Source: a candidate division WOR-3 bacterium | GTDB lineage: Bacteria; Hydrothermota; Tepidihabitantia; SM23-42; JAOAFX01 | Length of the DNA stretch: 33,390 bases | Assembly (NCBI GenBank): GCA_039802265.1 | Contig: JBDRWI010000022.1 | Location: 1 to 33,390 of the forward strand | Reading direction: 5' to 3' | Part shown: positions 1 through 27,463 of the stretch, one piece after another | Layout of the letters: every line of letters starts with the position of its first letter | Numbering within the stretch: position 1 is the first letter of the stretch | Position numbers and translations under genes: made by a program | The notes under the pieces: model-generated | The model's input: only the letters and a program-made list of their open reading frames with translations | The model's database searches: none | What the model was told of the DNA's origin: nothing

Positions 1-640
1 CACCACAGTGTGGACTATATCTTCATCCAGTTTCACGGTTCCTTTTTATCTGGAGGAGTTGATCTCTCTTTGTGGTATTCATTGAAAGTGCAATCTGTAG
101 TATTTCATCAAATCCATCTTCAGTCAGATGTCTACCCTGCTGGATTAGTTCCACAACCTTTTTAAATTTTAGAAAATCAATACGTTTTTTCGTTCTCAAG
201 GGATAACGGGTAAAAAACTCGCAGATTTTGCCCAGATTCGCTATCTTTCTCACCCTGTAGCACCATCTTTCATCGTGATTCTTCCTTACCACACCAAATC
301 CGAAGAATTTCTTTAAGCCGTATAATACATCCTTATCGCGTAGATGCTGAACTACCGTAAATTCCGGCAGAATCTGATAGCCTATCTTCATCTCCGGATG
401 CCTCAGGAAGGAGATGTGGAAGCAACCTTCTCCATCCACAAATCCAGCAATCCATTCCGGGCTTAATTCCATCACTCCTCCTTGAAACTGGATGCCTGGC
501 GTATAGTCTCTGAGGAACTCCTTTATCAGGATTTCCTGCGGGTTGTCCAATCCTTGACTTTGTTACGGATTGTCATCCAATCTCGTATTCAAGGCTCTAA
601 GGAGTTTCCCGCATATAGCCAAGTTCAGGCAACGCTCGTT
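1..640 (-). mobile_element. Group I self-splicing intron in 23S rRNA at E. coli-equivalent position 1931; 3' end lies beyond the window start
   Basis: rRNA match stops after ...CGGTCCTAAGGT (641), where AGCGAAATTC should follow. P1 (AGGU/AAC-GAGC-GUUGCCU) has a U.G pair at the splice site. Core elements are present: P GCUAUAUGCGGGAA, Q GACAACCCGCAG, R CUCAGAGACUAUA (~500-515), S AAGAUAUAGUCC (~12-23). An 11-bp P8 stem (484-494 with 24-34) encloses the ORF. Confidence 0.95.
23..472 (-). CDS. Single-motif LAGLIDADG homing endonuclease (149 aa), intron-encoded
   Basis: Motif WIAGFVDGEGCF plus FTVVQH...L..LKKFFGFG and YPLRTKK..DF..F. ATG at 472 is preceded by SD AAGGAGGAG. The ORF-track extension to 550 lies in the ribozyme core. 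Confidence 0.93.
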   Translation of the reverse strand: MELSPEWIAGFVDGEGCFHISFLRHPEMKIGYQILPEFTVVQHLRDKDVLYGLKKFFGFGVVRKNHDERWCYRVRKIANLGKICEFFTRYPLRTKKRIDFLKFKKVVELIQQGRHLTEDGFDEILQIALSMNTTKRDQLLQIKRNRETG

Positions 641-2698
<2,058 letters not shown>

Positions 2699-2849: not shown

Positions 2850-3326
2850 TTATTTGAAATAGAATCTTATGCCCAATCCTCCTTCCAGGTCAAAATCGGT
2901 CGCCGGAAAGATATTTACTACTGGATATATCTCCAGAAAGATTCCGAACCGGACAATAGTATATTCAATACCACCACCCAGCCGCATTCCAATATGCAAT
3001 TCTGTTTCATTCTGCTCAGTTTCTTTAATCCTTAATCTCCCCCCAACCCCTAAGAACGGTATAAGTCCCTTTATTTCTTTCTGTTCACCGGTCATCTCGT
3101 CTTGCCATCTTATAACCGAAGGAAAGAGAAATTGATAATCAGTGGTAATATGAAGATGGTAATTTTCAGTAATCGACCAACCAATATTGGCGGCAACCGC
3201 TGAGTTTTTAGTGAAAATGACTTTACCGGTAAATCCAGTTGGACTGCCGAGAATAATTCCCAGCCCAAGATGTTGGGCAAAACCAGCTGTTATCAGTGAA
3301 AATAATATAGCTCCTAATTTATTCAT
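2850..3326 (-). CDS. Small outer-membrane beta-barrel protein
   Basis: Signal peptide, alternating Gly/aromatic beta-strands, C-terminal GLGIRFYFK. Start overlaps the dnaN stop. Confidence 0.7.
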   Translation of the reverse strand: MNKLGAILFSLITAGFAQHLGLGIILGSPTGFTGKVIFTKNSAVAANIGWSITENYHLHITTDYQFLFPSVIRWQDEMTGEQKEIKGLIPFLGVGGRLRIKETEQNETELHIGMRLGGGIEYTIVRFGIFLEIYPVVNIFPATDFDLEGGLGIRFYFK

Positions 3327-4416
3327 AAGTGTCGATTCTCAATGGCATCAAGAGATATATTAAAGATTCCCCTTCTTTTGGCTTAACAAGGGTGGCGGAG
3401 GTGGCTGAGGTAAGCTGAATAATTGCCTCTTCAGTAATTATGTGGCGCAGAATTTCAAGAAAGAATCCGGCATTGTACCAGATGCTAATGCCTTCACCTT
3501 CATATTTACAGGGAATCTCTTCTTTCGCCTCACCAATATCTGGAGATGCGGCTGATAGTAAGATACTATCTGTCCTGAAATCAAATTTTACATTTTTAAG
3601 ATTGGGACTGGCGACAAGCGAAACCCTTCTGAGTGCCCCTTCCAAAAATGACCTTTCCACTGAACAGGTTCCGATAAATGCCTTGGGGATGACACCTTCA
3701 TAATTCGGATAGGGTCCCTCTATGAGACGGGCAATGATTGATGTACTTAGGAATTTAAGTCCAACCATTCTTTCTTCTATGAATAATTCAATCTTTTCCT
3801 CTGGCCTGTCGTATTCAATTAAATCAAATAACTTTGGAGTTACAATCACTTCTCCAGCGGGTGCTGCGGATAGACTTTGCTTATAAAGGGCAAGGCGTGC
3901 CCCATCCGTTGTTACCATATTTAGGGTATCATCTTTTACCTGAATCAAAACTCCGTTCATCGGTCGCCGTGAAATATCCTTTGAGACCATAAAGATTGTT
4001 GAATCTATCTGGGTACTGAATTCTCCAATGGTGATTTCAAACCACTTCTTTTCGGGGAATTTTGGAATTTCCGGAAATTCCTGATAGTCAAGGGCAGGAA
4101 TGTTAAAATGGGCATTTCCTGCAATAATTCCCAGGTTCAATTCTTTTAATTTGAAAGTAAGTTCTTCAATATTTGCCTCTCGGGTTATTTCTAACAGTTT
4201 CTTTCCAGGAATTAGTACCTTTCCTTCTTTCTTTACTTCGGCATTGACAAATTTCTTTATGAAGATATCAAGGTCTGTTCCTTCTATAAAAATTTTATTT
4301 TCTTTTGCTTCGATTATGATATTTTGAAGAACCGTGTAGGTACTTTTGGGCGGAATTAGTTTTACAATGCTCTGAAGGGTCTTTTCTAAAAAGCCTCGGT
4401 TAATTTTAAATTCCAT
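3319..4416 (-). CDS. dnaN: DNA polymerase III beta sliding clamp
   Basis: 365 aa with GTDLD, TTDGARLA, RLIEGPYPNY and C-terminal YLLMPLR; lies downstream of dnaA. Confidence 0.97.
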   Translation of the reverse strand: MEFKINRGFLEKTLQSIVKLIPPKSTYTVLQNIIIEAKENKIFIEGTDLDIFIKKFVNAEVKKEGKVLIPGKKLLEITREANIEELTFKLKELNLGIIAGNAHFNIPALDYQEFPEIPKFPEKKWFEITIGEFSTQIDSTIFMVSKDISRRPMNGVLIQVKDDTLNMVTTDGARLALYKQSLSAAPAGEVIVTPKLFDLIEYDRPEEKIELFIEERMVGLKFLSTSIIARLIEGPYPNYEGVIPKAFIGTCSVERSFLEGALRRVSLVASPNLKNVKFDFRTDSILLSAASPDIGEAKEEIPCKYEGEGISIWYNAGFFLEILRHIITEEAIIQLTSATSATLVKPKEGESLIYLLMPLRIDTYE

Positions 4417-4613
4417 TTTTCCCCCTTATCTCATTAACAAAATTATTTGAAATCAAATTGCTGTTATTATTGGAATAATGGAAAAGTGGATAATCGTAAA
4501 TTGTTAAGAAAAATTGGTAAAAATAGAGAAAGACAATGTGGATAATTGTGTGGATAGAGAAAGGATAAATTAATAACGATTTTGAAAAAAAACTATTCAA
4601 CATTTTATCAACA
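4417..4613. other. oriC element between dnaA and dnaN (DnaA boxes plus AT-rich unwinding region)
   Basis: TGTGGATAA 4537-4545 (perfect); TGTGGATAG 4549-4557, AGTGGATAA 4485-4493 and TTATCAACA 4605-4613 (one mismatch each). AT-rich tract next to dnaN. Confidence 0.85.
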
Positions 4614-5927
4614 ATTTATCCTGTTGGTTATTGACTCTATCTTAAGGGCAATTTCGGTGTCAACACCTCTTAATCTTTCAATTTTATCAATCGCATGAAT
4701 CACGGTACTATGGTCCTTGCCACCAAAAAATTCACCTATCTCAGTCAGTGAAAGATTTAAAAGATTTCGCACCAGATACATCGCAATCTGGCGGGCCAGG
4801 GCAAGTTTGGGTGTGCGTTTCTTACCCTTTAACTCCTCTTCGCTGAAACCAAATTCCGCACAGACACGCTTGAGAATCAATTCCTTTGTGGGTTGTCCAT
4901 TTGTTCCAAACATATCCCTTAATGCCTCTTCAGCGAGTGATTCAGTCAATTCCTGTCCGGAAAGTGATGCCATTGCCATCAGTCTTATAAGACATCCTTC
5001 CAGTTCACGGATATTTGACTTTACGCGCGAAGCAATATAATATGCAACACTGCTCGGTAGTTTTACATTTTCTATCGCGGCCTTTTTCTGCAATATGGCA
5101 ATCCTTGTCTCAAGGTCTGGGGGTTGAAGGTCTACAACCAGACCACCCTGAAAACGGGATGTGAGACGTTCTTCCAGCGTGGTCAATTCTTTGGGTGGAC
5201 GGTCAGATGTAAGAACAATCTGCTTGCCCTGACTGTAAAGATAGTCAAAGGTATGGAATATCTCATCCTGCAACCGCTCTTTACCATAAAGAAATTGAAT
5301 GTCATCAATCAATAGAATGTCAATCGTTCTATACTTCTTCTTGAATGCAATTTGGAGATTCTTCTGAATTGCCTCAATCAGTTCATTCATTATATTCTCA
5401 GCCTGGGTATAATAGACCTTCATATTTTTATGCTGGCGATGGACAAAGTTACCAATTGCCTGCATCAAATGAGTCTTACCCAGTCCAACACCACCATAAA
5501 GAAACAATGGATTGTATGCCTCACCCGGTGCCTCGGCAACTGCCAGGGCAGCAGCATGGGCAAACTCATTATTTTTACCCACGACAAAATTCTCAAAGGT
5601 ATACCTTTCCTGCAATTTTGTAGGACTTTGTGAGATTATAAAATGTTTCTTTTTTGCAACTGGCCGACTTCCTTCCTGGGTGGCAGTTTTGAAACTCACC
5701 CGTAGTTTATCTCCATTTACGGCATTTACTGCCTCTTCAAGGATCTGGGCATAATGGACAGCAATCCAGTCAATATGAAAGTTGGTGGGCATTTCAACAA
5801 ATAATAGACCATCCTTCAGTTCTACTCCTTTACTCTTCTCAAACCAGGTAGTATAGGACTGGGGATGTATCTTCTCTTTTATATATGAGAGAATATTATC
5901 CCAGATTACCTTTGCCGAATCGTTCAT
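4608..5927 (-). CDS. dnaA: Chromosomal replication initiator DnaA
   Basis: YTFENFVVG, YNPLFLYGGVGLGKTHL, LLIDDIQF, NIRELEG and GGKDHSTVIHA motifs. Confidence 0.99.
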   Translation of the reverse strand: MNDSAKVIWDNILSYIKEKIHPQSYTTWFEKSKGVELKDGLLFVEMPTNFHIDWIAVHYAQILEEAVNAVNGDKLRVSFKTATQEGSRPVAKKKHFIISQSPTKLQERYTFENFVVGKNNEFAHAAALAVAEAPGEAYNPLFLYGGVGLGKTHLMQAIGNFVHRQHKNMKVYYTQAENIMNELIEAIQKNLQIAFKKKYRTIDILLIDDIQFLYGKERLQDEIFHTFDYLYSQGKQIVLTSDRPPKELTTLEERLTSRFQGGLVVDLQPPDLETRIAILQKKAAIENVKLPSSVAYYIASRVKSNIRELEGCLIRLMAMASLSGQELTESLAEEALRDMFGTNGQPTKELILKRVCAEFGFSEEELKGKKRTPKLALARQIAMYLVRNLLNLSLTEIGEFFGGKDHSTVIHAIDKIERLRGVDTEIALKIESITNRINC

Positions 5928-7136: not shown

Positions 7137-8951
7137 TTATTTCAACACAATAAACTTTCTTACCGTTTTCCATCTCTCGGTTTTCACTACTGCGAAATAG
7201 ATACCTTCAGGCAGTGTCCGATTGTAACTGTCAACCAGTGGAATACTTATTTTATAAAAATTGGGTGTAATTTTCTCACTCTTTACCGCCTTCCCCAGAA
7301 TATTGTAAATTGTTATTTCAAATTCTTTTAATTTATCACCGAAAATGGATAATGTCAAGGCGTGCCTCGTGTGGGTAGGAATGTATAAAGATATTTTTTT
7401 CTTTATTTTGGATTGTTGCTCACTGATGTCGATCAAGCCAATAATTGTATCAGTCCAACACCAGAAGCCCCCTGCACCAGTCATTCCTTGATTTTCTTGT
7501 GGACTCCTATTTACTACAAATATCCTATCACCTGCCCAGGCACGATAATAAATTAAAAACTCCCCTGTTGTTCGTGGTCTAAGTGCAACCCAGTAATTAA
7601 CGGTATCATTGGGGGGTAAGTAGTTATCCCAGTGATTGCCTCCATACCATTCAACCCATTGAAATCCATCCCAATTCGGACCTGATTGAGAATAACCGAT
7701 TCCATACCCACTCGTTTTATAATCAACAATCTCAAGTTGTGAAGTATCAACAGAAAAATGGACACCATAGTTATATGGGGTTAGTGGTCCATTGTTCGTT
7801 AACCTAAGGTAAATGGTATCAATTTCGTCCGAGAGAAGGGATTCTGGCAGAATGGTGGTCTGGATTGACAAATCTATCGGTCCCATTTCATAAGGACGAT
7901 AATTTATATATATTGGATTGGTAAAGCCCTGACCCTCATTTTCCGCATTTCTAATTTCAACCCGCACAAAATTCGTATCATCAGGTGTATAAGTATGTGT
8001 CCATTCATAAACCCACGAACCGGGTAGGGCAGGATGTTCTTCAAAAATTCCATTTTTATCAAAGAACCAGGCTTTGTATCCGGAGAGATTATTATGCGAT
8101 TCAATCCGGAACTTTATTATTGTTGGAGTATTAATTGATATTATATCACCGGTTAATTTATCATAGACACCATCATTCCCTGAATCTGCATAGAAATAAA
8201 CAATAGGATGGTCAAAGTGTTCAGACATCGTCATCCGTCCCAGTTTTATATATTTTATTATTGTATCGGGCTCATTGCTCGGGGCATATACCCTGATACA
8301 GGGGTCAAGGATATTCTGTATTTCATCATTGTGGAAATCCGAAGATGCAATTCCGGCAATGGCACGGCCTTGGGCGAGTAAACTCTGCCACCAGTCGATT
8401 GCCTGCTGATTATAAGTTGACCAGGATTTGTTTAAAATTTCAATGGCATCAATACCGATATCAAGGTATGGATAATGTTGCCAGTTTACTCCCGGCCTTG
8501 CGGGATGATTGATTACGACTATACCACCCCGATAAGTCGCCTTATCTATCATATCTATAATTGGACAATAATAATTTACTGGATTATCGCCCTGAAGACC
8601 CAAAATACAGGCATGTCCAGAATCCGAGGTCCATTCAGTTCCCCTTATCGGGAGTACATTTCCTGTTTGGTGCCAGCCTGTATCATTACATTGGGCAAGT
8701 GTATTATGGTCAGTGATGGCAAGGAAACTACCACCCAAGTTATTCACCTCATTCAAATCCCAACTTACACTATGGAGTCCGTCACTATATGTGCTGTGAC
8801 AATGGGTATTACCCAGCCACCAATAATTCCTATGGCAGGTGAGGTTTATAACTATTGAATTTGGAATTAACTCACCTGGGGCAGCGAGATAATCCCCGGC
8901 AATAAAGTGAATTGAAAAGATAAGGCAGGATATATTGAATATCTCAACCAT
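7137..8951 (-). CDS. Secreted PHP-domain (CehA/McbA-like) metallohydrolase with T9SS-type C-terminal domain
   Basis: GNTHCHSTYSDG, AITDHN, GTEW, INHP and SSDFH metal ligands; C-terminal IYNILGK...LPEGIYF...RKFIVLK. Start moved to ATG 8951 (GAGG upstream, and the promoter lies within the longer ORF). Confidence 0.85.
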   Translation of the reverse strand: MVEIFNISCLIFSIHFIAGDYLAAPGELIPNSIVINLTCHRNYWWLGNTHCHSTYSDGLHSVSWDLNEVNNLGGSFLAITDHNTLAQCNDTGWHQTGNVLPIRGTEWTSDSGHACILGLQGDNPVNYYCPIIDMIDKATYRGGIVVINHPARPGVNWQHYPYLDIGIDAIEILNKSWSTYNQQAIDWWQSLLAQGRAIAGIASSDFHNDEIQNILDPCIRVYAPSNEPDTIIKYIKLGRMTMSEHFDHPIVYFYADSGNDGVYDKLTGDIISINTPTIIKFRIESHNNLSGYKAWFFDKNGIFEEHPALPGSWVYEWTHTYTPDDTNFVRVEIRNAENEGQGFTNPIYINYRPYEMGPIDLSIQTTILPESLLSDEIDTIYLRLTNNGPLTPYNYGVHFSVDTSQLEIVDYKTSGYGIGYSQSGPNWDGFQWVEWYGGNHWDNYLPPNDTVNYWVALRPRTTGEFLIYYRAWAGDRIFVVNRSPQENQGMTGAGGFWCWTDTIIGLIDISEQQSKIKKKISLYIPTHTRHALTLSIFGDKLKEFEITIYNILGKAVKSEKITPNFYKISIPLVDSYNRTLPEGIYFAVVKTERWKTVRKFIVLK

Positions 8952-8979
8952 GATAGTTGCCTCTAAGGAGTATTTTTTA

Positions 8980-9007
8980 ATTATAAATAAAGATTCCAAA
9001 GAGTCAA
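8980..9007 (-). promoter_or_regulatory. Promoter of the PHP hydrolase (and possibly fba)
   Basis: TTGACT (9007-9002)-N16-TATAAT (8985-8980). Confidence 0.75.
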
Positions 9008-9126: not shown

Positions 9127-11418
9127 ATGACAAGGATTCGGGTGCAGGTCAGGGGGATAGTCCAGGGGGTTGGATTCAGGCCGTTTGTCTATCGTCTGGC
9201 AAAGAACTTGAGATTGGTCGGGTTTGTGCGCAATACATCTTTCGGTTTAGAAATTGAAGTTGAAGGAGCACTCTGGAAACTAAAAGAATTTTTAAAAAGA
9301 CTTTCATCACAGAGACCACAGGCATCAATAATTGAAGGGGTTAAGGTCAAAAAGATCCCGGTAAAAAAAGAAAAAGATTTTATTATAAAGCAAAGCAGAC
9401 CGGCTAAAGGCTTCACGCAGATTTCACCTGATATTGCGACCTGCAAGGACTGTTTAATGGAATTCTTCAATCCCAGAGACCGCCGATATCGATTCCCCTT
9501 TATCAACTGCACAAACTGTGGTCCAAGATATTCAATAATTCATAATACACCCTATGACCGCAAACAGACATCAATGGAGAAATTTAGAATGTGTCCAGAT
9601 TGTAAAGAGGAATTTGAAGATGTGCGCAACCGTAGATTCCACGCCCAGCCTGATTGTTGTTTTGTGTGTGGACCACAATTTTCTTTATATCGCGTTGATG
9701 GCAAGCAGATCAAAACAAGCGATCCGATTGCCAAGGCAATAGACCTGCTCCACAAAGGAGAAATCATTGCCATCAAGGGTATCGGTGGATTTCATATTGC
9801 CTGTGATGCTACAAATTGTAGCACGATAAAAAAATTAAGGATTTTAAAGAACCGACCGACCAAGCCATTTGCGATAATGGCAAGATATACCGACATCAAA
9901 AAAATTGCAAGCCCCTTTAGGGAAGAATTGAGCATCTTAAGATCTCCCATTGCCCCGATTATGTTATTGAAAAAAAGAGATAGGGTGGTATGTGAAGAAG
10001 TGGCACCGAAAAATCCATATCTCGGCGTTATGCTTCCCTATGCCCCGATTCATTATCTGCTCCTGGAAGGGATTCCCTATCTTGTTATGACCAGTGCCAA
10101 TATTGCCGATGAGCCATTGGTGAAGGACGACGAAGAAGTTAGAAAAAAATTAAAAAAAATAGTTTCTTTCTATCTCACCCATAATCGCGATATTGTCAAT
10201 CGCTGTGATGATTCAGTGGGATTTTATCTTGCAAAAAGAGGATTTTCCATCATCAGACGCTCAAGGGGATATGTCCCTGTTCCTGTTGAATTGCCTTTTA
10301 AGGTCAGACCAACCCTTGCGGTTGGACCGTATTTAAAGAATACCTTTACCCTCGCCGATAAAAATTATGCCTATGTTTCACCACACATCGGGGATCTGGA
10401 TAATATAGAGACCTTGAACTTTTTTAATGAGATGGTTGAAAAATATAAAAAATGGTTCAAGATTGAACCGGAATTAATTATTCATGACCTGCATCCAGAC
10501 TATCTGTCTACAAAGATTGCCCTTGAAATAGCGAAAGGCGAGAGTTTAAAGGTGAAAGGTGTCCAGCACCACATTGCCCACATCGTCTCCTGTCTTGGCG
10601 AAAACAGAATTTATGATCGGGTAATTGGCATTGCCTTTGATGGTACTGGATTTGGTCTTGATGGAAAAATCTGGGGGAGCGAATTCTTTGTCGGTGATAT
10701 CAAGGAATTAAAGAGGGTTTCCCATCTTGAGTATCTACCACTTCCGGGTGGCGAGGAGAGTATAAGAAAGCCTTACCGGATTGCAATTGCCTACCTGTAT
10801 AAACTCTTTGGTAAGGAGTTAATCCGTCAGGATTTTATAAAAAACTTGCAACTTAAATCATTTTCTAAAGAAATTGACACGATCATCAAAATGATTGACC
10901 GAAATTATAACCTTGCCTTTACCTCAAGTATGGGTAGGCTCTTTGACTGTGTCTCGGCAATGCTCGGAATTACCCAAGAAATTACCTACGAGGCTGAGGC
11001 TGCAATAAACCTTGAATATATAGCAAAGAAGGGAATAAAAGATTATTATCCATACATCATTACGATGGAATCTGATGAATTTGTTATTTATATTCGCCCC
11101 ATCCTTGAAGGCATATTAAACGACATTAAAAAAGAGGTAGATAGAGGTATCATCTCCGCAAAATTCCATAATACAATCGTTCAATTCTCTCTTGCCATTG
11201 CAATAAAATTACGCAGGATTTATAGTGTAAAGAAAATTATTTTATCGGGTGGTGTCTTTCAAAATCGTTATTTATTGAATCTGATGATAGATGCTCTTGA
11301 AAAAAATAACTTTCAGGTTTATACGCACCACCGGCTCCCCACAAACGATGGTTGTATATCTTATGGACAGGTGATACATGGGAACATAACAAGCAAATGT
11401 GCCTGCTATTCCTATTGA
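9127..11418 (+). CDS. hypF: Hydrogenase maturation carbamoyltransferase HypF
   Basis: Acylphosphatase-like GIVQGVGFRPFVY, zinc-finger CxxC pairs (CKDC, CTNC, CPDC), KGIGGFH, HDLHPDY, QHHIAH, TSSMGRLFD, PTNDGCISYGQ. Confidence 0.97.
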   Translation: MTRIRVQVRGIVQGVGFRPFVYRLAKNLRLVGFVRNTSFGLEIEVEGALWKLKEFLKRLSSQRPQASIIEGVKVKKIPVKKEKDFIIKQSRPAKGFTQISPDIATCKDCLMEFFNPRDRRYRFPFINCTNCGPRYSIIHNTPYDRKQTSMEKFRMCPDCKEEFEDVRNRRFHAQPDCCFVCGPQFSLYRVDGKQIKTSDPIAKAIDLLHKGEIIAIKGIGGFHIACDATNCSTIKKLRILKNRPTKPFAIMARYTDIKKIASPFREELSILRSPIAPIMLLKKRDRVVCEEVAPKNPYLGVMLPYAPIHYLLLEGIPYLVMTSANIADEPLVKDDEEVRKKLKKIVSFYLTHNRDIVNRCDDSVGFYLAKRGFSIIRRSRGYVPVPVELPFKVRPTLAVGPYLKNTFTLADKNYAYVSPHIGDLDNIETLNFFNEMVEKYKKWFKIEPELIIHDLHPDYLSTKIALEIAKGESLKVKGVQHHIAHIVSCLGENRIYDRVIGIAFDGTGFGLDGKIWGSEFFVGDIKELKRVSHLEYLPLPGGEESIRKPYRIAIAYLYKLFGKELIRQDFIKNLQLKSFSKEIDTIIKMIDRNYNLAFTSSMGRLFDCVSAMLGITQEITYEAEAAINLEYIAKKGIKDYYPYIITMESDEFVIYIRPILEGILNDIKKEVDRGIISAKFHNTIVQFSLAIAIKLRRIYSVKKIILSGGVFQNRYLLNLMIDALEKNNFQVYTHHRLPTNDGCISYGQVIHGNITSKCACYSY
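11397..11413 (+). pseudogene. hypC: Probable relic of the hypC 5' end (MCLAIP with a 1-nt deletion)
   Basis: ATGTGCCT-GCTATTCCT overlaps the hypF 3' end; restoring one base gives Met-Cys-Leu-Ala-Ile-Pro. Confidence 0.45.
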
Positions 11419-11443
11419 CATTTTTTATTTCTTAAATTATATT
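11415..11443 (+). promoter_or_regulatory. Promoter of the STAND regulator, probably leaderless
   Basis: TTGACA-N17-TATATT ending 5 nt before ATG 11449; no SD. Confidence 0.55.
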
Positions 11444-11448
11444 TAAAT

Positions 11449-14376
11449 ATGAACAGTTTTGTTCTGCTGAGCAAGCTTCAATTACCACAGATAAATCAAA
11501 GGGTCTTATACCGCGGTCGTTTGATTGAGTTGCTTAAATCGAATTTAGACAAACAATTAATTCTAATCATTGCTGGACCGGGTTACGGTAAGACCACGCT
11601 CCTTGTTCAATTTGTTCATGATACCGGTATTAATTATGTATACTATCATTTAGAAAAAGAAGATTCTGACCCAGCAATATTTATACCTCACCTGATTACC
11701 GGGGTCAGACAAATTTATCCAGAATTTGGCGAAAAAACTATGGCATTGAGTAATTATTTCAGCAGGATTGATAAATTTTCATATATTACGCTCGGAACGC
11801 TTACCAATGAATTCGTTGAACATCTGACCAGGGATTTATACATTATACTTGAAGATTACCATGCGCTCAAGCCGCCGTCCCAGATTGATTTTATCTTAAA
11901 TTATCTCTTTCTACACGCCCCCCAAAAATTGCACTTTATAATTACATCAAGGGGTGATATATCAATTACAACTTCTGTACTTAAGGCAAGGGATGTAGTA
12001 TTTGAGATGAGAGCCGATTCTTTTCGTTTTACAAAGGATGAAATCAAGGCGCTTGTCACAACTTTGTTTTCTTTGAAATTAAAGGAAGATGAAATTGAAT
12101 GGTTAAACATCCATTCCGAAGGCTGGCCTGCAGGTCTTAGATTGATACTTCAATCACTCCAGCTGACCAGGGAGATTGAGCCTTCATCTTTTATTACAAA
12201 ATTGCAGGCTGACTATCCCCGTATCTCGGCAAATATCTTTGATTATTTCGCCCAGGAGGTTTTCCAATACGAACCAAAACAAATCCAGGAATTTTTAATT
12301 GATTGTTCTTCTGCCGAGTATTTAAATCCCAATATTTGCACGATAATTACCGGGATGGAAAACAGCAAAGAAATCCTTGCTGATTTAGCCAGGCGTAACA
12401 TATTTGTTTACTCCTTGCCCGATGGCAATTATCGGCTTCACTACCTTTTTAGAAAATTTTTAGCAAACAAGGTTTCAGACCAAAAGAAAAGGAAGGAGCT
12501 CTACCAGCGCATTGGTGACTACTGGTTAGGGATAAATAAAGACGAAGCGATTAAATATTACATTCAGGCAGAGGATTTCAGAAAGGCGGGGGAGGTTTTA
12601 CAAGAGTATGGAAAGATAATGCTTGCCCAGGGCAGGGGTAGCGCCCTTTCTTCACTCATTGAAGAACTCCCCGAGTCAATTTACATTAAAAATCCGATGC
12701 TACTTAAATTGTATGGCCAATCTTTGAGTTATCTTGGTAATTATACAAAGGCAAAAGAATATCTTCTAAAGGCGCTAAAAAAGAGCCGGGACCGGGGTTT
12801 TAAAGCAGATACCGAATATACCATCGCTGGTGTCAATCTAAATGAAGGCGATTATAAAAGTGCCCGAAGGAGATTATTCAAAACCTTGAAACTATGCCCT
12901 CAGAAACAATGCCTTATAAAGGCATCTGCTCTCAATTCCTTGGGTGCCATATTTAATAGTTTAGGTGGCAGATATCTCTCCCTTGCCCAAAGGTTTTTCA
13001 AAAGGGCAATGCGGATTGCCGAAAAAAGAAACCTGAATGAACTGAAGGCAAGCATCCTCAACAACTGGGCAATGAACCTATGGAAACAGGGTGACTTAGA
13101 AGGGGCATACTCAAGACTATCAATTTCAATAAAATTATTAAAGGAACACTTCACCCCGGGCTGTGGTGCAGGATTTTATAATGCGGCAAGGGCAGCACTA
13201 TTACTCGGTTATGTAAATCAGGCAGAAGAGATACTAAAGTCAGGGTTTGAAATCTGTGAGAGATTCAATGATCCCTGGTCTTTAACAAGTATCTGGCGGG
13301 GATATGGACTCCTTTCTCTGGAGCGTGAAGAATTAGACAGGGCAAAGGAATATATTATTAAATCACTTGAATTATCAGAAAGATTGAATGTGCCTTGGCT
13401 TATTATTGTTGCCCTGATTGAACTTTGTAATATTGAGATTTCAATGGGAAATTATCTGGAGACAGAAAGATGCCTTGAGCGGATAGCTAAGATAAAAAAA
13501 TTGAAAGACGATACCGAATCAATACCGATTTTACTTGCCCGGGGTAGATTATTAGTATCCCAGAAAAAATATGAGGAGGCAATAAACAATTTTCTCAAGG
13601 CAATTGAATATGCCCAAAAATTTCATCAAATCTTTGAATTGTTTCTGGCAAAGATTGAACTGGCAATTGCCCTTTTTAGACGCAATGAATTGAACAATCT
13701 TAAAAAGTCCTTAAAATCCCTGATAAAGATGAGCAAGAAGTATGGCTATGGTTATGCATTGATAAAAAAATTTTCAACCGAGCCGCAGTTGTTGAGATAT
13801 TTATTAAAGGAGGGGATTGAGAGCAATTACATACACTCAATTTTGCGGAAATATCGTCAGAATATTCATATCCTTGAGGCACACTTCTTTGGTACTTCTG
13901 AATTATATGTTGATGGCATAAAGGTTAAGGATGAAGATTGGAGGTTGCAAAAGGCAAAGAAACTTTTCTTTTATATCTTATTAAATCAAAAGACAAAACT
14001 GAACCGGGATACCTTGATCGAAAGATTCTGGCCCAACTCAGGCTTAAAACAGGGCTATGATAGTCTGCGCAAGGCGGTCCATTATATCAGACTAACGCTC
14101 AGTAAATATAATATAGATGAGCCGATCCTGGTGCAGGGTGGTTATTACCAGCTTTCGGAAAAACTCAATGTCTTCACCGACATTGAAGAATTTAATGAGA
14201 TTGTGAATAAAATTAAAAGTGCCGAAACCAGTATCCATATAGAATTACCGAAACTCTTGAAGCTCTACAAGAGCGGGTTCGCCCCTCAGTGGTATGACGA
14301 TTGGGCACTGGAAATGGCGCGCAAATATGAATATGTGATAAAAGAAATGAAGGAAAGACTCAAGGCTAAAGTATAA
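11449..14376 (+). CDS. MalT-like STAND ATPase / TPR / SARP-type (wHTH plus short BTAD) transcriptional regulator
   Basis: N-terminal SKLQLP..R.RL, Walker A AGPGYGKTT, Walker B IILEDYH, SEGWPAGL; central TPRs; C-terminal FFG..ELYVDG...W...KAKKLFFY...LIERFWP...LYKSGF...DDW. Confidence 0.85.
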   Translation: MNSFVLLSKLQLPQINQRVLYRGRLIELLKSNLDKQLILIIAGPGYGKTTLLVQFVHDTGINYVYYHLEKEDSDPAIFIPHLITGVRQIYPEFGEKTMALSNYFSRIDKFSYITLGTLTNEFVEHLTRDLYIILEDYHALKPPSQIDFILNYLFLHAPQKLHFIITSRGDISITTSVLKARDVVFEMRADSFRFTKDEIKALVTTLFSLKLKEDEIEWLNIHSEGWPAGLRLILQSLQLTREIEPSSFITKLQADYPRISANIFDYFAQEVFQYEPKQIQEFLIDCSSAEYLNPNICTIITGMENSKEILADLARRNIFVYSLPDGNYRLHYLFRKFLANKVSDQKKRKELYQRIGDYWLGINKDEAIKYYIQAEDFRKAGEVLQEYGKIMLAQGRGSALSSLIEELPESIYIKNPMLLKLYGQSLSYLGNYTKAKEYLLKALKKSRDRGFKADTEYTIAGVNLNEGDYKSARRRLFKTLKLCPQKQCLIKASALNSLGAIFNSLGGRYLSLAQRFFKRAMRIAEKRNLNELKASILNNWAMNLWKQGDLEGAYSRLSISIKLLKEHFTPGCGAGFYNAARAALLLGYVNQAEEILKSGFEICERFNDPWSLTSIWRGYGLLSLEREELDRAKEYIIKSLELSERLNVPWLIIVALIELCNIEISMGNYLETERCLERIAKIKKLKDDTESIPILLARGRLLVSQKKYEEAINNFLKAIEYAQKFHQIFELFLAKIELAIALFRRNELNNLKKSLKSLIKMSKKYGYGYALIKKFSTEPQLLRYLLKEGIESNYIHSILRKYRQNIHILEAHFFGTSELYVDGIKVKDEDWRLQKAKKLFFYILLNQKTKLNRDTLIERFWPNSGLKQGYDSLRKAVHYIRLTLSKYNIDEPILVQGGYYQLSEKLNVFTDIEEFNEIVNKIKSAETSIHIELPKLLKLYKSGFAPQWYDDWALEMARKYEYVIKEMKERLKAKV

Positions 14377-14412
14377 AAATTTCACAAAAATTTCACAGAG
14401 ATAGATTATAAT
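14376..14412 (+). promoter_or_regulatory. Activator-type promoter: 11-bp direct repeat in place of -35, plus TATAAT
   Basis: AAAATTTCACA x2 (14376-14386, 14387-14397); TATAAT at 14407-14412; no TTGAC at the normal distance. Confidence 0.6.
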
Positions 14413-14428
14413 ATTCTTAGGAAATATT

Positions 14429-15958
14429 ATGCTATTAGTCATCCTTTGCCTTTTTAACCTTTATTCCCATAACCCATCATTTAATGTCCGTCTCTGGGAT
14501 ACAAAGGTGCATAACATAAATGGGATAGAGTTCTGGATAACAAACTATGGCAAATTGGGTCCCTGCTATTGTCCACCCGGAAGCGGTTTCAATTATATGT
14601 GGGGTTCTGGCATCTGGGTTGGTGCAATAGACTCAGTAATTGGGGATACCCTTGTCACCATTGGCTATGGTCCATCTGGTGGCGAGAGTGAATTTGCCCC
14701 GGGATTATATCTCCAGGACCCTTCAGCACCCTATGTAATAATTTATATGTATCCCCAGCCCTGGCCCGCACCACCTGAGACATTTCCTATGGCACCGCAA
14801 GAACCAGTTTCTGACCAGGACTCCTGGTGCTGCTACAATGACTGTGATTCAATCTATCACACCCCCAATGATACAAAACCGATAGGGATTGAGGTCTATC
14901 AGACAGTCTATGTCTGGGCTGATTCCCTGCCTTGGGATATGATATTTTTAACCTTTGAGATAAAGAATGTCATGCATAAACCGATTAAAGACCTTTATAT
15001 TGGCTACTGTGCAGATATTGATATTGGAAATGAGACAGCACCGTATCTGAATGATATCTGTAGTGCAATTGTGGGACAATGGTATGTAATAAATGGTGAA
15101 TCAATCTGGGTTGATAACCTTGCATATCAGTGGGAAACTGAACCTGAACCAGGATGGGATGAATCCCGTTGCGTAATTGGTATTGATTTGCTTCAGACAC
15201 CCTTTGATTTACAATGGGGGCAGGATAAGGATAATGATGGAATTCCTGACCAGTATGAACGGGATAGTGCCTATTATGTAAATAACCTTCCACCGGATAT
15301 GTGGGATGTTGACAATGATGGCGTTCCTGACTGGCGCGATGCCTCAGAAAATCCCCAAATGGGGATGACCGCATTCAAGAGATTTACACTTGCCATTGAA
15401 CCCAATAAAGATAATGAGCGCTATTTAACGCTTGCTGGTTATAACTTCCAGACCGGGCAGTATGAGCCCTATGATACAATACCATCTCAACCCGATGACC
15501 AGAGATTCTTGATGGCAAGCGGGCCATTTGAACTTATGCCGGATTCAAGCGTTATAATTGTGCTCGGGATAATGATTACCTGTTGGGATACCCTTGATGC
15601 CCGGCCTGATACCGCCATCGTCCTTGCTGACCGCTGGGCACAACTTTACTATAATCTAAACTGGTCTTTAGGTATTTCTGAAAACAGAACTACCCGGCAA
15701 TCGTTTTTTGATTTTTCAATAAGACCCACTATTTTGCAAAATCACACCAAGGCCTTCTTCAGCCTGAGACAGCCCGGAAATGTCACGCTGAAGATCTATG
15801 ACCCTTTGGGTAGATGTGTGAAGGAGGTTTATAGCGGCTATTGCCCGGCCGGTAAAAGATATATAGATATTGACCTCCAGGACCTTGCTTCCGGGATGTA
15901 CCTCTTATCACTTGAGAAGAATAAAAAGCAGATTATCAAGAAATTCATAAAACTATGA
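14429..15958 (+). CDS. Secreted protein with T9SS-type C-terminal domain and Ca-binding DxDxDG loops; function unknown
   Basis: Signal peptide; DKDNDGIPD and DVDNDGVPD; GISE linker; LKIYDPLGR...LASGMYLL...KKFIKL. Confidence 0.8.
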   Translation: MLLVILCLFNLYSHNPSFNVRLWDTKVHNINGIEFWITNYGKLGPCYCPPGSGFNYMWGSGIWVGAIDSVIGDTLVTIGYGPSGGESEFAPGLYLQDPSAPYVIIYMYPQPWPAPPETFPMAPQEPVSDQDSWCCYNDCDSIYHTPNDTKPIGIEVYQTVYVWADSLPWDMIFLTFEIKNVMHKPIKDLYIGYCADIDIGNETAPYLNDICSAIVGQWYVINGESIWVDNLAYQWETEPEPGWDESRCVIGIDLLQTPFDLQWGQDKDNDGIPDQYERDSAYYVNNLPPDMWDVDNDGVPDWRDASENPQMGMTAFKRFTLAIEPNKDNERYLTLAGYNFQTGQYEPYDTIPSQPDDQRFLMASGPFELMPDSSVIIVLGIMITCWDTLDARPDTAIVLADRWAQLYYNLNWSLGISENRTTRQSFFDFSIRPTILQNHTKAFFSLRQPGNVTLKIYDPLGRCVKEVYSGYCPAGKRYIDIDLQDLASGMYLLSLEKNKKQIIKKFIKL

Positions 15959-16055
15959 GCCAACACTTCTTTGCATTTTTGAACTGAACCCATCAGTCAA
16001 GGAATTTCAGTGAAAAAGGATGATAGAGATGGGTGAAAATGCTACACATCAATTT

Positions 16056-16088
16056 ATTGTATAGGAATTTGGAAAATTCCTATACAAT
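16056..16088. repeat. Perfect 15-bp inverted repeat; possible bidirectional terminator
   Basis: ATTGTATAGGAATTT-GGA-AAATTCCTATACAAT between convergent genes. Confidence 0.75.
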
Positions 16089-16123
16089 GGTAATGAAATT
16101 TTTCATTATAGTTAAAAAAACCA

Positions 16124-16224
16124 CAAGATATTCAGGGGAGGGTGAGATGAAAATGGTCTTTGCACATAGAGAGGGTTTGCTATATAGCGGGGGTTTTCAG
16201 GGGGTATCCCCCCTGAATATCTTG
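16124..16224. mobile_element. Candidate 101-bp MITE-like element
   Basis: Perfect 15-bp terminal inverted repeats CAAGATATTCAGGGG / CCCCTGAATATCTTG; internal hairpin TTCAGGGGG-TATC-CCCCCTGAA; no clear target-site duplication. Confidence 0.5.
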
Positions 16225-16299
16225 ATGATTCATCTTTATTTTAGGAAAAACTTACCTTTTACTTTTAGCCGTGATAAGGAATTGGGTTGGACAGGTCTT

Positions 16300-16896: not shown

Positions 16897-16914
16897 AATA
16901 CCTCCTTGGTTACA

Positions 16915-17149
16915 TCAAAAAAGGAGAAGAGGGCTTAAGAAGTGAAAGATGGCAAAAATGGCAATCAATAACACCAGTAAGAAAGAAATTGGCCATCGGT
17001 TTCGGTTTAGAAATGCGATAGGGTTTAGTTATTGGACTTAGTAAACAACAAACGACAACCAATAGACCGATCTCGTTTCCAAACCAAAACCTAAACCGTT
17101 TATCATATCTTGCCATCTTGAGCCCTATTTAGCCTTCTATCCCTTTTTG
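16915..17149. repeat. Long nested imperfect inverted repeat filling the intergenic region
   Basis: Arm pairs GGTTTCGGTTTAGAAATGCGAT / ATCTCGTTTCCAAACCAAAACC, AAGATGGCAA / TTGCCATCTT, GGGCTTAAGA / TCTTGAGCCC, CAAAAAAGG / CCCTTTTTG. Confidence 0.65.
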
Positions 17150-17161
17150 CTTTATCATTAT

Positions 17162-20100
17162 TTACTTAAGCACTGCAAACTTCTTGAACTTCACTTCTCT
17201 TTTTTTATTATTCTTCGCCTCAATGCGCAGGATATAGATACCATTTGCCTGATTGGTGAAGTCAAAATATCCTTCGTTATATTCATTGGGAGTAACCTTA
17301 TCAATCTTCATCCCGCCAACGCGGTGTCCGGCAAGGTCCAGGATGTCAATCTTCACAGTTGCATCCTGGGCAAGGAAGAAACGGACCGTGCCATATTTCT
17401 CAACCGGTGAAGGGTAGATATAGAACGAACCAATCAATGTCCCTGAAATCCGGGGTTGAATATAACCCCCTTCATACCTTCCCCAGTTTTTGTTTGAATT
17501 CATATAGCCACACCAGGAGGCGGTCTTCCCTGGAAAATCCCAGATATAAATCATACCTGAATCACTACCGCAGGAAAGTTCTAAATCACCATCACCATCA
17601 ATATCTTTAACAAATCCCGGAGAGGAGAACCCACCCTCACCAAATAATGGTGAAAATGCAAATTCATGGTTTCGGTTGTAGATGAGTTTCAAACTCCCAA
17701 AACTCAGGGAGTCCGGTGCCGCCAGGCCAAAAATTAACTCTTCATTTGCTATGGTATCAAGATTGGCAATCAAAAGGGGATATAATATATACTCCTCAGT
17801 ATTGAGGGGGAAATTATTCTCAATCGTTCCATTGCGGTTGAAGACATACAATGTCCTGCTACTATTGGGTGAGATTATCTCAAGGAAGCCATCTTGGTCA
17901 ATATCGGCCAGTGCCGGTGTATAATAAAACACTGTATCAATCCAGGTCTCAAACTTCTGTTCTAAGGAGTCTTCACCATAGATATAGAATGTGCCATAAC
18001 CATTAACAATTGCAGCCTCGGGTTTACCATCCCGGTCTAAATCACCAACAACCGGCGATGAATAGGTAAGCATATTATGCCGGGAGTTGGTGAATTCCTT
18101 AATTATTCCATCTTTATTTACCAGCCAGAATCTGCCATCAGCACCCAGGACACCAATTTTTTTATTCAATTCATCAAATACGCAGGGTGTAGAATAGAGC
18201 CAGGAATTGAGATAGATCGGGAAATTGGGGATATTTGAACCAGTGTTATTTAAACAGTATAACCTTCGGTCTTCCGAGCCAAAGATAATCTCCAGTTTAG
18301 CGTCGCCATTTATGTCAAATAATAAAGGGGCGCCAAGGATTATACCTTCGGCACGGAAAGGGAAATATGCCAATGGGGTAAGTGTCCGTCCATCAATTGC
18401 CCTTAAATAGAATCCCGAGCCGAAGACAATATCTTCTCCATTATCACCATTTACATCACCGATTGCCAGGAAGGTGGTAATTGTATCAACCACCGTTGAA
18501 CCGTAGAGTGTGCCATCGTGATTATAGACATAAATATTTCCATAACGGGTTGTGGCAACTACTTCAATATCCCCGTTTCCATCAAGGTCACCATAACTTA
18601 AAGAATAGATCGGTCTTCTCCAGGGTAAAGAGACCGGAAATCCCTTTTGATAGATATCAAAATTTACTGAGATATTCATCAGGGTATCAAGTTTTGATAG
18701 GACTTCAATGTTAATCAGCGATTTTCCAAAATAACTGTCAGAATTGGGATTGGTGAACGGTCCAAAGTGATGATTGGATTTACCAGAATCATCAATAAAG
18801 AAAAAATCATATTTACAGCCGAAATATTCAGGGTCCGGTTCATTGTAGTATCCAACATTCCACCAGGCATCAAAGTGCTGAATTCCGTCCGCCTCCTCTA
18901 CATCAATTCCCTTATGTTTTGGGTCAATCTGGATTGTATTATAGGGATAGTTGGCATATATCACATTATCATCAATATGCCAGATTAAAATTCCACTACC
19001 GGGTAAAAAGAAGTCATATTCACCATAATCAACATAGACCGGGACCCCATCTTCAACATCAACGATGATTGTATCTTTATTTTTTATATCCTGCTGGCGG
19101 TTTTCAATTAGAAAAAATTCGGTGGAAGAAATTGGAATCTTTATCAATGTCTGATTTGCCAAACCTGACTGGGTAGTATCAACTGCAGACGCACGCAGGG
19201 TCAAGAGACTCTCGGGCTCGGCTACTACAACTGGTTCAACCCAAACCGGGTCATTGGTGTAATGACCGAAGAAATATCTTGTCCAGGCACCCATATTCGC
19301 CGGGATTGAACCTTCCGGAACCCCGACCTCGGGCATCCCAACCCAGCCGCCGGTGCCCATTAAATCATAGGCGCCCACACCGCAGGAATTCCCGGTAACA
19401 TCGTATAGGTCGGGCAGACCGAGGATATGACCGAACTCGTGAACGGTTGTTCCCACAGCACCCACCATATACCAGTCCACCCTTGCCATCTCTGATAGGC
19501 AGGAAATTGGACACTGGATTGTGTCCGTGCCATTATTGGCGATTATATAGGGAACACCCAGATAGTATTCAAGTGCCCCGGGTGGAATTGTTGCGGAAGG
19601 AATATCATAGACCCGCCAAAAGTTAGCACCTGTCTGGAGCATGCTGCCGGCGTGGAAAACAATTATTGCATCGTAATCCGAGAAATCAATGGTCTCATCC
19701 AGGTCTGCGGCGGCGATTGCATCCGCAACAATCCTTACCATCCCCATCTCCATCGCATAGGTGTTAAAGAGAGCCACGGTGATTCCACCGATAACCTCAA
19801 AGTGGTCAAAACCGCTGTAGTATGACATCTTATGGGGAAGTTGATAAGAATCGGTTGGCCGGTCGGGCTTTACTACGAAATTTATATTACAATGACCAAA
19901 GGAGTTAGCCTTATAATAGTTGTGCAGAAACTCCATCTGGTGCTCAAAGTAATTCTTGGTGTGGGGTGGGTCGTAGAAGAGACCATCAGAAGGCGAACCG
20001 AGGCCGATCAGGTCCATCTTGCCGTTGCCGGTGGAAAGCGTATCATCATCCAGGACAAATTCTGCCCTTAAGACCAGGATATTCAAATTCTGTAGTCTTG

Positions 20101-20317
20101 ATTTCTTTTTTAATTTCGGAATGCCAAATTCCTTAAAAAAATGTACATTTCTAAATTGCCTTGGTGAGTATATTTCAGCCCCTTTGGAGTTGATAAGTTT
20201 AATCCTTAGATTTGATTCTGGTAGCGCGGGTATCGGATAATGCCTGTCTTTCGTAATTACCAATCTTTCGGCATTACCGATGGCAAAGAAAAATAAGATT
20301 AGTAGCGACAGCCGCAA
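17162..20317 (-). CDS. M6 (immune inhibitor A-like) metalloprotease with FG-GAP repeats and T9SS-type C-terminal domain
   Basis: HEFGHILGLPDLYD, YDLMGTG, FFLIENRQ, GILIWHID; repeated GDLDGNGD.E motifs; C-terminal NGIYILRI...KKFAVLK. TTG start at 20317 follows AAGGAGG and gives a signal peptide. Confidence 0.9.
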   Translation of the reverse strand: MRLSLLILFFFAIGNAERLVITKDRHYPIPALPESNLRIKLINSKGAEIYSPRQFRNVHFFKEFGIPKLKKKSRLQNLNILVLRAEFVLDDDTLSTGNGKMDLIGLGSPSDGLFYDPPHTKNYFEHQMEFLHNYYKANSFGHCNINFVVKPDRPTDSYQLPHKMSYYSGFDHFEVIGGITVALFNTYAMEMGMVRIVADAIAAADLDETIDFSDYDAIIVFHAGSMLQTGANFWRVYDIPSATIPPGALEYYLGVPYIIANNGTDTIQCPISCLSEMARVDWYMVGAVGTTVHEFGHILGLPDLYDVTGNSCGVGAYDLMGTGGWVGMPEVGVPEGSIPANMGAWTRYFFGHYTNDPVWVEPVVVAEPESLLTLRASAVDTTQSGLANQTLIKIPISSTEFFLIENRQQDIKNKDTIIVDVEDGVPVYVDYGEYDFFLPGSGILIWHIDDNVIYANYPYNTIQIDPKHKGIDVEEADGIQHFDAWWNVGYYNEPDPEYFGCKYDFFFIDDSGKSNHHFGPFTNPNSDSYFGKSLINIEVLSKLDTLMNISVNFDIYQKGFPVSLPWRRPIYSLSYGDLDGNGDIEVVATTRYGNIYVYNHDGTLYGSTVVDTITTFLAIGDVNGDNGEDIVFGSGFYLRAIDGRTLTPLAYFPFRAEGIILGAPLLFDINGDAKLEIIFGSEDRRLYCLNNTGSNIPNFPIYLNSWLYSTPCVFDELNKKIGVLGADGRFWLVNKDGIIKEFTNSRHNMLTYSSPVVGDLDRDGKPEAAIVNGYGTFYIYGEDSLEQKFETWIDTVFYYTPALADIDQDGFLEIISPNSSRTLYVFNRNGTIENNFPLNTEEYILYPLLIANLDTIANEELIFGLAAPDSLSFGSLKLIYNRNHEFAFSPLFGEGGFSSPGFVKDIDGDGDLELSCGSDSGMIYIWDFPGKTASWCGYMNSNKNWGRYEGGYIQPRISGTLIGSFYIYPSPVEKYGTVRFFLAQDATVKIDILDLAGHRVGGMKIDKVTPNEYNEGYFDFTNQANGIYILRIEAKNNKKREVKFKKFAVLK

Positions 20318-20342
20318 ATTGGCCTCCTTCATAAATTTCTTT

Positions 20343-20370
20343 ATTATACCCAAACCTGCAGGGAAGTCAA
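20343..20370 (-). promoter_or_regulatory. Promoter of the M6 protease gene
   Basis: TTGACT (20370-20365)-N16-TATAAT (20348-20343). Confidence 0.8.
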
Positions 20371-27416: not shown

Positions 27417-27444
27417 TTGACTTTTTTTTTTTAGTGTATATAAT
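27417..27444 (+). promoter_or_regulatory. Promoter with a T11 tract in the spacer
   Basis: TTGACT-N16-TATAAT; T run at 27422-27432. Confidence 0.8.
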
Positions 27445-27463
27445 AGTGTACAAGGAGGTTCAT

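Follow-up and report, generated by a model that had tools for sequence, protein, structure and literature searches.

A STAND-TPR-SARP regulator and a phased TTTCACA repeat that probably activate genes for exported proteins in candidate division WOR-3

The stretch of DNA analysed here (33,390 nucleotides, hereafter the window) corresponds to contig C22 in the genome of a candidate division WOR-3 bacterium, an assembly of 2.3 Mb estimated at 89% completeness. The window encodes a STAND-TPR-SARP regulator of 975 aa (11449..14376, plus strand), followed by a predicted exported protein of 509 aa, hereafter the cargo (14429..15958, plus strand). By analogy with AfsR of Streptomyces coelicolor, the regulator, a truncated form of its kind, probably binds a TTTCACA direct repeat in the place of the –35 element and switches on the gene behind it. 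The proof that the repeat is real lies in its conservation among relatives. In the window alone the box is not far above chance: two matches with at most two mismatches are found in the window against 0.46 expected, and 8 of 100 shuffles reach two.

The repeat consists of two copies of AAAATTTCACA (14376–14386 and 14387–14397) and starts at the last base of the regulator stop codon TAA (14374–14376). Its operator-like core, TTTCACA-N4-TTTCACA with an 11-bp period, occupies 14380..14397 on the plus strand, and the –10 element TATAAT (14407..14412, plus strand) starts 9 bp after the last A of the repeat, ahead of the cargo ATG at 14429. An earlier sequence-only reading had described this arrangement as a perfect 2 × 11-bp repeat running from the stop codon to 9 bp before TATAAT, and the coordinates agree. 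Its remark that the promoter lacks a TTGA-type –35 element also holds: the hexamer 17 bp 5' of the cargo –10 is ACAAAA, whereas four promoter-like sites matching 11 of 12 positions between 8500 and 17500 carry TTGATA, TTGACA, TGGACA and TTGACT. The promoter scan of this region proves nothing alone, returning 27 sites against 27.6 in shuffles. The exact TTTCACA-N4-TTTCACA motif has a single match in the 2.3-Mb genome, and in a matrix scan of the genome the cargo site scores 34.8, compared with 12.5 for the next-best site and a control maximum of 13.7. At the cargo paralogues on contigs C27, C34, C36 and C63, no box is seen by eye and no matrix score is obtained.

Among 131 genomes, regulator matches are present in 43 (110 rows), and 30 loci together with 40 regions chosen for a 3' end were analysed. 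The 75 regulators with a C-terminal end comprise 42 members of one clade, which includes the regulator of the window and is named clade A here, and 33 others. A motif-blind repeat test covered the 53 regulators that have, no more than 400 bp away, a called gene on the same strand, the other 22 being left out for contig ends, tandem regulators or lack of a called gene. A period-11 repeat score of at least 11 is reached in 43 of these 53 spacers. The corresponding share is 13% for 47 regions lying upstream of the same regulators and 4% for 575 spacers from the same genomes, and none of 30 shuffles exceeds 4 of 53; periods other than 11 give 2–19%. The sequence-only reading had proposed that homologues should be followed by the repeat and by a gene bearing the C-terminal domain of the cargo, and this is what is found, with the TTTCACA pair behind 37 of the 42 clade-A regulators and behind none of the 33 others. 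The box lies at –26 to 264 bp from the regulator stop, and TANAAT columns of a –10 element emerge, unselected, 9 bp after the box in 35 aligned sites. Among the five clade-A rows lacking the pair, L032 carries a degenerate TCAC array, and in L007 the regulator is interrupted by a stop, half of the box is gone and the cargo gene is broken, which indicates joint decay.

The association extends to whole genomes. The pattern of box, 9 bp and TANNAT, scanned through the 131 genomes with a reversed-pattern control, yields 96 sites in 35 genomes, and the control yields one site. The pattern is present in 33 of the 37 genomes with clade A and in 2 of the 94 without it, one of these two being 66% complete. 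In the family of the source genome, all ten genomes with the regulator have a site and none of the five without it does; the boxes are near-perfect in all ten, including sites far from the regulator.

The recognition helix (residues 866–885, 14044–14103, plus strand), delimited from the family alignment, supplies a second line of evidence. Residue K875, at the position of AfsR T88, is lysine in 42 of 42 clade-A rows and in none of the 33 others. Other helices go with other repeats placed equally far from a –10 element: those with RTTAYR or RTTASR go with TGTT(A/G)TG repeats and the HVEIS helix goes with a TGTGAG repeat, and single helix cases occur with TGTAACA, TTGAGA and TTTAAG, and with TTGAC and TGTCAAC at a 12-bp period. 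TGTT(A/G)TG occurs in 5 of 48 genomes, each time just behind a regulator match and once at a previously unsampled locus, and TGTGAG occurs in 17 of 48, with up to ten sites, against one in the control. As judged from these alignments, helix type and box type co-vary across clades, and sister clades with other helices have other boxes. No repeat is found in 10 of the 33 non-clade-A rows, most of which represent the first gene of a tandem pair; a small number of repeat calls with low scores are probably due to chance. Such tandem STAND-TPR-SARP pairs are seen in genus g16 (L059, L061, L063, L066–L069), in which a box and a TonB-dependent receptor-like gene come after the second gene only; the paired proteins might act as hetero-oligomers.

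The regulator adopts a MalT-like architecture up to its output domain. With a profile built from 22 close homologues, MalT is matched over residues 2–409 (E 3e-53), and the TPR region matches the TPR_MalT family (E 1.2e-11). The MalT-type nucleotide-binding and arm region, assigned from the profile match and family alignment, spans 11467..12702, and the TPR sensor region, further supported by the model, spans 12703..13848, both on the plus strand. Walker A K48, Walker B D136, R168 and H331 are kept in every alignment row covering these positions, and all hallmarks of a MalT-type STAND protein are found: a nucleotide-binding oligomerisation domain (NOD) with Walker A and B motifs, the sensor arginine, the histidine of the winged-helix domain, the arm and the TPR sensor. 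In the predicted structure (mean pLDDT 85.5), the NOD leads into a long TPR solenoid, after which come a winged helix and three more helices; a fold search with the whole model returns MalT at the top, then PH0952-type STAND and TPR proteins, with no SARP among the matches listed. The match to NF003420 ends at residue 804, the MalT family score is 241.5 bits against a cut-off of 537 bits, and no LuxR-type output (PF00196) is matched on proteins P0001–P0024. A related-locus search from a single protein query found nothing. Database annotation names include MalT-SARP fusions, indicating that the combination is recognised at the level of labels.

The C-terminal SARP part (13861..14373, plus strand), comprising the winged helix and BTAD helices 1–3, is assigned from the model, the family profile and the AfsR alignment. 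When 36 C-terminal parts are combined into a profile, it matches AfsR (8hvr, E 2.2e-16) and EmbR (2fez, E 1.2e-8) and spans AfsR residues 50–263, while the 171 C-terminal residues of the query itself have no Pfam, NCBIfam or PDB sequence match, so the SARP identity rests on the family alignment and the model. An OmpR-type winged helix followed by BTAD is found for the clade, and the model of the regulator shows a winged helix and then helices. The claim of a MalT-like ATPase/TPR protein ending in a SARP-like rather than a LuxR-type domain is thereby upheld, as is that of a shortened BTAD. Only three of its helices are present in the model (911–924, 926–940 and 951–974); helices 4–7 of the complete seven-helix domain are missing, and the chain stops at the residue that corresponds to AfsR D189. 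BTAD is short in 9 of 42 clade-A rows and full length in 33. The nine short members are all the clade-A proteins from the family of the source genome, and they form one branch with a FastTree support of 99, so the cut is a single old event and not an assembly error. No stand-alone gene for the missing helices is found in the genome; the only good match to them is the tail of a TPR-SARP protein with another helix type on contig C3. This 715-aa protein (19514–21658 of contig C3, L147) has a full BTAD and no STAND ATPase, and its gene lies ahead of small exported-protein genes.

The box is not restricted to the gene behind the regulator. Up to 12 sites occur in one genome, and many of the 96 sites lie far from the regulator, indicating a regulon, composed mostly of exported proteins, rather than only a two-gene cassette. 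The regulator-cargo pairing proposed in the sequence-only reading is thus retained, while its restriction to two genes is not, and different genes lie downstream. A callable gene is present at 57 of the 73 sites examined, and 23 of these genes are cargo homologues; a crude signal-peptide rule is passed by 54 of these 57 target open reading frames (ORFs), compared with 293 of 575 in the background. A Pfam scan of 22 targets finds TonB-dependent receptor, peptidase C25 and peptidase M28, DUF885, Kelch, LVIVD, FG-GAP, YncE, BNR and TPR domains, with five targets lacking a match. Since the box heads genes for TonB-dependent receptors, peptidases and beta-propeller proteins in relatives, the regulon most likely serves macromolecule scavenging. 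In genus g14 the box also lies 5' of the regulator itself in four of five cases checked, suggesting positive feedback there.

A mechanism can be proposed. By analogy with MalT (PMC10427625), a cytoplasmic inducer binding to the TPR region would promote exchange of ADP for ATP and oligomerisation. On the model of AfsR, the two heptamers would then be occupied head to tail by two winged helices, with sigma region 4 and the beta flap serving as the contacts that bring in sigma-70 RNA polymerase. The truncated form may activate without contacting the C-terminal domain of the RNA polymerase alpha subunit (alpha-CTD), by its winged helix and BTAD helix 3. In a 97-site matrix there is no –35 consensus at 16–18 bp and no TG extension of the –10 element, and the box has a single orientation and a constant 9-bp distance to the –10 across sites; together, these features argue for activation rather than repression. 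If the –10 element is taken to start at –12, the repeats cover the same interval as the afs box, –40 to –19, and with this assumed numbering both boxes share T at –38 and –37, C at –36 and A at –35 (PMC10936776). At afsS, a 20-bp gap precedes the –10 element and 8 nt separate it from the repeats (PMC11301090); the 9 bp found here is one more than the latter distance.

Work on AfsR also indicates which contacts the truncated form could retain. Substitutions of AfsR R59, D71, E76 and R173, which contact sigma or beta, cut activation, whereas E246A, L247A and V249A have no obvious effect (PMC10936776). The positions of R59, D71, E76 and R173 map to the retained part of the truncated regulator; the D71 position is glutamate in nine of nine truncated rows, and the R173 position is lysine or arginine in eight of these nine, compared with none of the 33 full-length rows. 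The BTA domain of AfsR has seven helices, with a sigma region 4 pocket formed by L211, E213, L243, L247, V249 and R252 and alpha-CTD contacts made by R240, D245, E246, D250 and L263 (PMC10936776), and in our alignment the residues of both sets fall beyond the end of the regulator.

This loss leads to a different account, in which the full-length ancestor activated and the truncated form only binds, its boxes being relics or served by a near-perfect –10 element alone. The truncated form lacks all alpha-CTD contact residues, which AfsR needs; by hand count, TATAAT is perfect at 15 of 16 sites in the source family and at 29 of the 79 sites of family f3; and one genome (G032) has a broken copy. 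Even so, we regard this account as unlikely. Near-perfect boxes persist in all ten family genomes that carry the regulator and are absent from the five that do not, and the winged helix is conserved like the ATPase among six truncated proteins (57% versus 55%). One f3 genome, whose genus-mate carries a regulator of full length, has perfect –10 elements at eight of eight sites; lineage bias may therefore account for the –10 difference.

That the regulator is instead a repressor or roadblock at the box appears very improbable. The box does overlap the –35 region, a location where one mostly finds repressors (PMC11301090), and the cargo could be expressed by read-through from the regulator promoter; yet the site offers neither a –35 nor an extended –10 element to repress, and the single orientation and fixed 9-bp spacing are required for activation but not for repression. 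Just as little weight is given to the box being read by another factor, such as the 715-aa TPR-SARP protein of contig C3 with its full BTAD, or to a partner supplying the missing helices. The recognition helix of that protein, NLQVAINEVR, belongs to the non-K type; from genome to genome the box goes with the clade-A gene, helix type goes with box type, and no separate gene for the missing helices is found in the genome.

Several observations weigh against activation by the regulator of the window. AfsR itself needs the alpha-CTD contact for activation (PMC10936776), and the R59 and E76 positions are not conserved, being N/H and mostly K in the truncated rows. In the source genome, 89% complete as it is, the cargo promoter is the only box site. 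A terminator between regulator and cargo was looked for and not found, so read-through may also express the cargo. Three loci (L004, L019 and L040) have intact clade-A regulators with neither box nor cargo behind them; 4 of the 37 clade-A genomes lack the strict pattern and two other genomes have it. The clade-A assignment, made from regulator matches and the tree, depends in four of the 37 on gene fragments only. Moreover, the genomes are kin, nearly all of them belonging to a single order, and the truncation arose once, so that the counts overstate independence. Outside the phylum, a sample of 80 loci with 61 long ORFs, 49 of them with a SARP match and 48 with enough flank, shows no enrichment of a period-11 repeat downstream or upstream of the 48 relatives (10%, against 4–10% for other periods). 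This sample gives hints only, in the form of CCTCAAG pairs in four Acidobacteria loci and, in three Anaerolineae-type loci (L213, L214 and L217), of a TTTGCAAA repeat with an 11-bp period that lies 50–65 bp 5' of the regulator and is a possible autoregulatory box.

The TPR region carries features that bear on the inducer. Residues N538, N539 and N578 and a GCG motif are conserved in clade A, and N496, N539 and N578, which occupy the same position in successive TPR repeats, are nearly invariant there. Rows of asparagines in other TPR proteins bind peptide backbones. By this analogy the inducer could be an imported peptide, a choice that is weakly favoured because peptidases are among the box targets and that we hold as a doubtful first candidate; an oligosaccharide comes second and is less likely still. 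The only cultured WOR-3 strain grew on yeast extract and on no tested substitute (PMC12285271), a finding that does not discriminate between these candidates.

The cargo consists of a hydrophobic N-terminus, a beta-supersandwich (residues ~19–420) with acidic DxDxDG loops (266–301), and a type A sorting tail of the T9SS (type IX secretion system; 449–507). The tail foreseen in the sequence-only reading is recognised as Por_Secre_tail (PF18962, 449–507) at 31 bits against a cut-off of 27 and by TIGR04183 at 33.3 bits, over its cut-off. The SprA and PorV families are found over cut-off in the genome, so that sorting domain, machinery and signal peptide, the last judged by eye and by the crude rule, mark a T9SS type A substrate. 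The model (pLDDT 82.7) shows nothing beyond the sandwich, a single long helix and the tail. Its best fold match is the N-terminal beta-supersandwich of glucoamylase (Z 19.6, root-mean-square deviation 3.0, 235 residues aligned); the catalytic helical barrel of GH15 and GH94 is absent from the model, and the ESM Atlas gives only unnamed clusters under 0.9. The cargo has 211 homologues. Residues D266, D268, D270, D274, D293, D295, D297 and D301 are invariant in 84 sequences, and their positions fit putative Ca-binding loops. Two cargo paralogues lie directly behind TonB-dependent receptor-like genes, one of them followed by a PorV-family gene, making a surface binding role in uptake the likeliest function. 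Three more proteins of the window have T9SS tails (7137–8999, 17162–20353 and 27434–29089: a PHP-type metallohydrolase, an M6 peptidase and one of unknown type), none with a box.

A conserved leader lies between the –10 element and the cargo start in genus g16 (L014, L018, L024–L027, L041 and L126); its core is invariant and a stem of 15 bp closes it. Two-sided changes are seen in 9 of 23 predicted pairs among eight sequences, no Rfam match is obtained, and the leader pattern occurs in 8 of 131 genomes, seven of which belong to genus g16 at this gene; it is possibly a regulatory RNA of a new type. At the locus of the window itself, an Rfam search gives no match near regulator, box or cargo.

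The gene pair is flanked by hypF and by a reverse-strand gene without relation to it, and hypF is the upstream neighbour of the regulator in none of 19 other loci checked. The regulator has its own promoter of the ordinary sigma-70 type, identified in the promoter scan (TTGACA-17-TATATT, 11415..11443, plus strand), and a TTGACA-type promoter lies just 5' of the regulator start in 11 of 20 clade-A members examined. Named homologues of both regulator and cargo come from candidate division WOR-3. No reads of one RNA run fell on the stretch, and two probable DNA runs cover it. In run X1, the contig over the cargo (14444–16080) differs at 49 of 1647 letters and that over the regulator (11271–13304) at 9 of 2034, and the cargo region may be diverging faster than the regulator region.

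Elsewhere in the window, dnaA (4608–5927) and dnaN (3319–4416) lie on the minus strand, and the sign of the GC skew switches near 8–9 kb, so the locus may be close to the replication origin. A group I intron match of 57.9 bits (1–693, minus strand) lies at the end of a 23S rRNA gene and is overlapped by an ORF of 175 aa (23–550, minus strand) that may be an intron-encoded endonuclease. Around 16050–16225, a multi-copy element of ~170 bp with an internal inverted repeat gives 55 blastn rows in the genome and very high depth in the sequencing runs. A 260-bp stretch (16900–17161) is missing from the X1 and X2 contigs, gives 11 blastn rows in the genome and is likely a small mobile insertion.

SARP binding to 11-bp repeats and the MalT-type switch are known already. 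A wider picture, plausible to us but somewhat short of an even chance, is that the secretome of one WOR-3 order is run by STAND-TPR-SARP sensors, each with its own 11- or 12-bp repeat set by a readable helix code, that the TPR region senses peptides from degraded protein, and that the truncated member is a minimal SARP activating without alpha-CTD contact, aided by a basic residue, K959, that has been regained and faces the beta flap. For a nearly uncultured phylum, the present case provides a concrete regulon with regulator, site and targets. The matched helix-box pairs (K-type with TTTCACA, RTT-type with TGTT(A/G)TG, VEIS-type with TGTGAG, and others) make sequence recognition by SARPs testable, and the truncated clade is a natural test of the need for the alpha-CTD contact seen in the AfsR structures. 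A literature search largely outside subscription journals and supplements returned no characterised protein with the STAND-TPR-SARP order and no work on WOR-3 regulons; a STAND survey (PMC13581612) may list this order in its supplement.

Comparison with known systems places the two proteins as follows. The cargo shares the fold of the N-terminal beta-supersandwich of GH15, GH94 and GH116 enzymes (1LF6, 9JU0, 1ULV) at 7–11% identity, but it has no catalytic barrel and carries additional acidic loops and a T9SS tail, and the shared fold shows no function. EmbR of Mycobacterium tuberculosis (2FEZ) shares the SARP domain with the regulator, but has FHA and no STAND. Like AfsR (8HVR, 8K60, 8JKE; PMC10936776, PMC11301090), the regulator combines a SARP winged helix with STAND and TPR modules. 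Its 11-bp repeats lie over the –35 region as in the afs box, and the gap from the –35-like TTCACA (14381–14386) to the –10 element is 20 bp as at afsS. AfsR, however, has the order SARP-NOD-TPR, and its orthologues place SARP N-terminally, then NB-ARC, with TPR downstream of the NTPase (bioRxiv 10.64898/2026.09.02.748808). In the WOR-3 protein the order is STAND-TPR-SARP with a MalT-type NOD and a C-terminal SARP, and NF053617 is matched at 14.6 bits against 1430. In addition, lysine replaces T88, which reads bases in AfsR, Y/H replaces R92, BTAD helices 4–7 are missing, the host is a Gram-negative WOR-3 bacterium, and the targets are exported proteins rather than antibiotic regulators. With MalT of Escherichia coli (8BOB; PMC10427625) the regulator shares the succession of NOD, arm and TPR-type sensor, and its catalytic motifs are intact, while it differs in having a SARP output instead of the LuxR-type helix-turn-helix and no maltose genes nearby. 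The regulator is thus AfsR-like at the promoter and MalT-like at the switch, and a member of neither family as defined.

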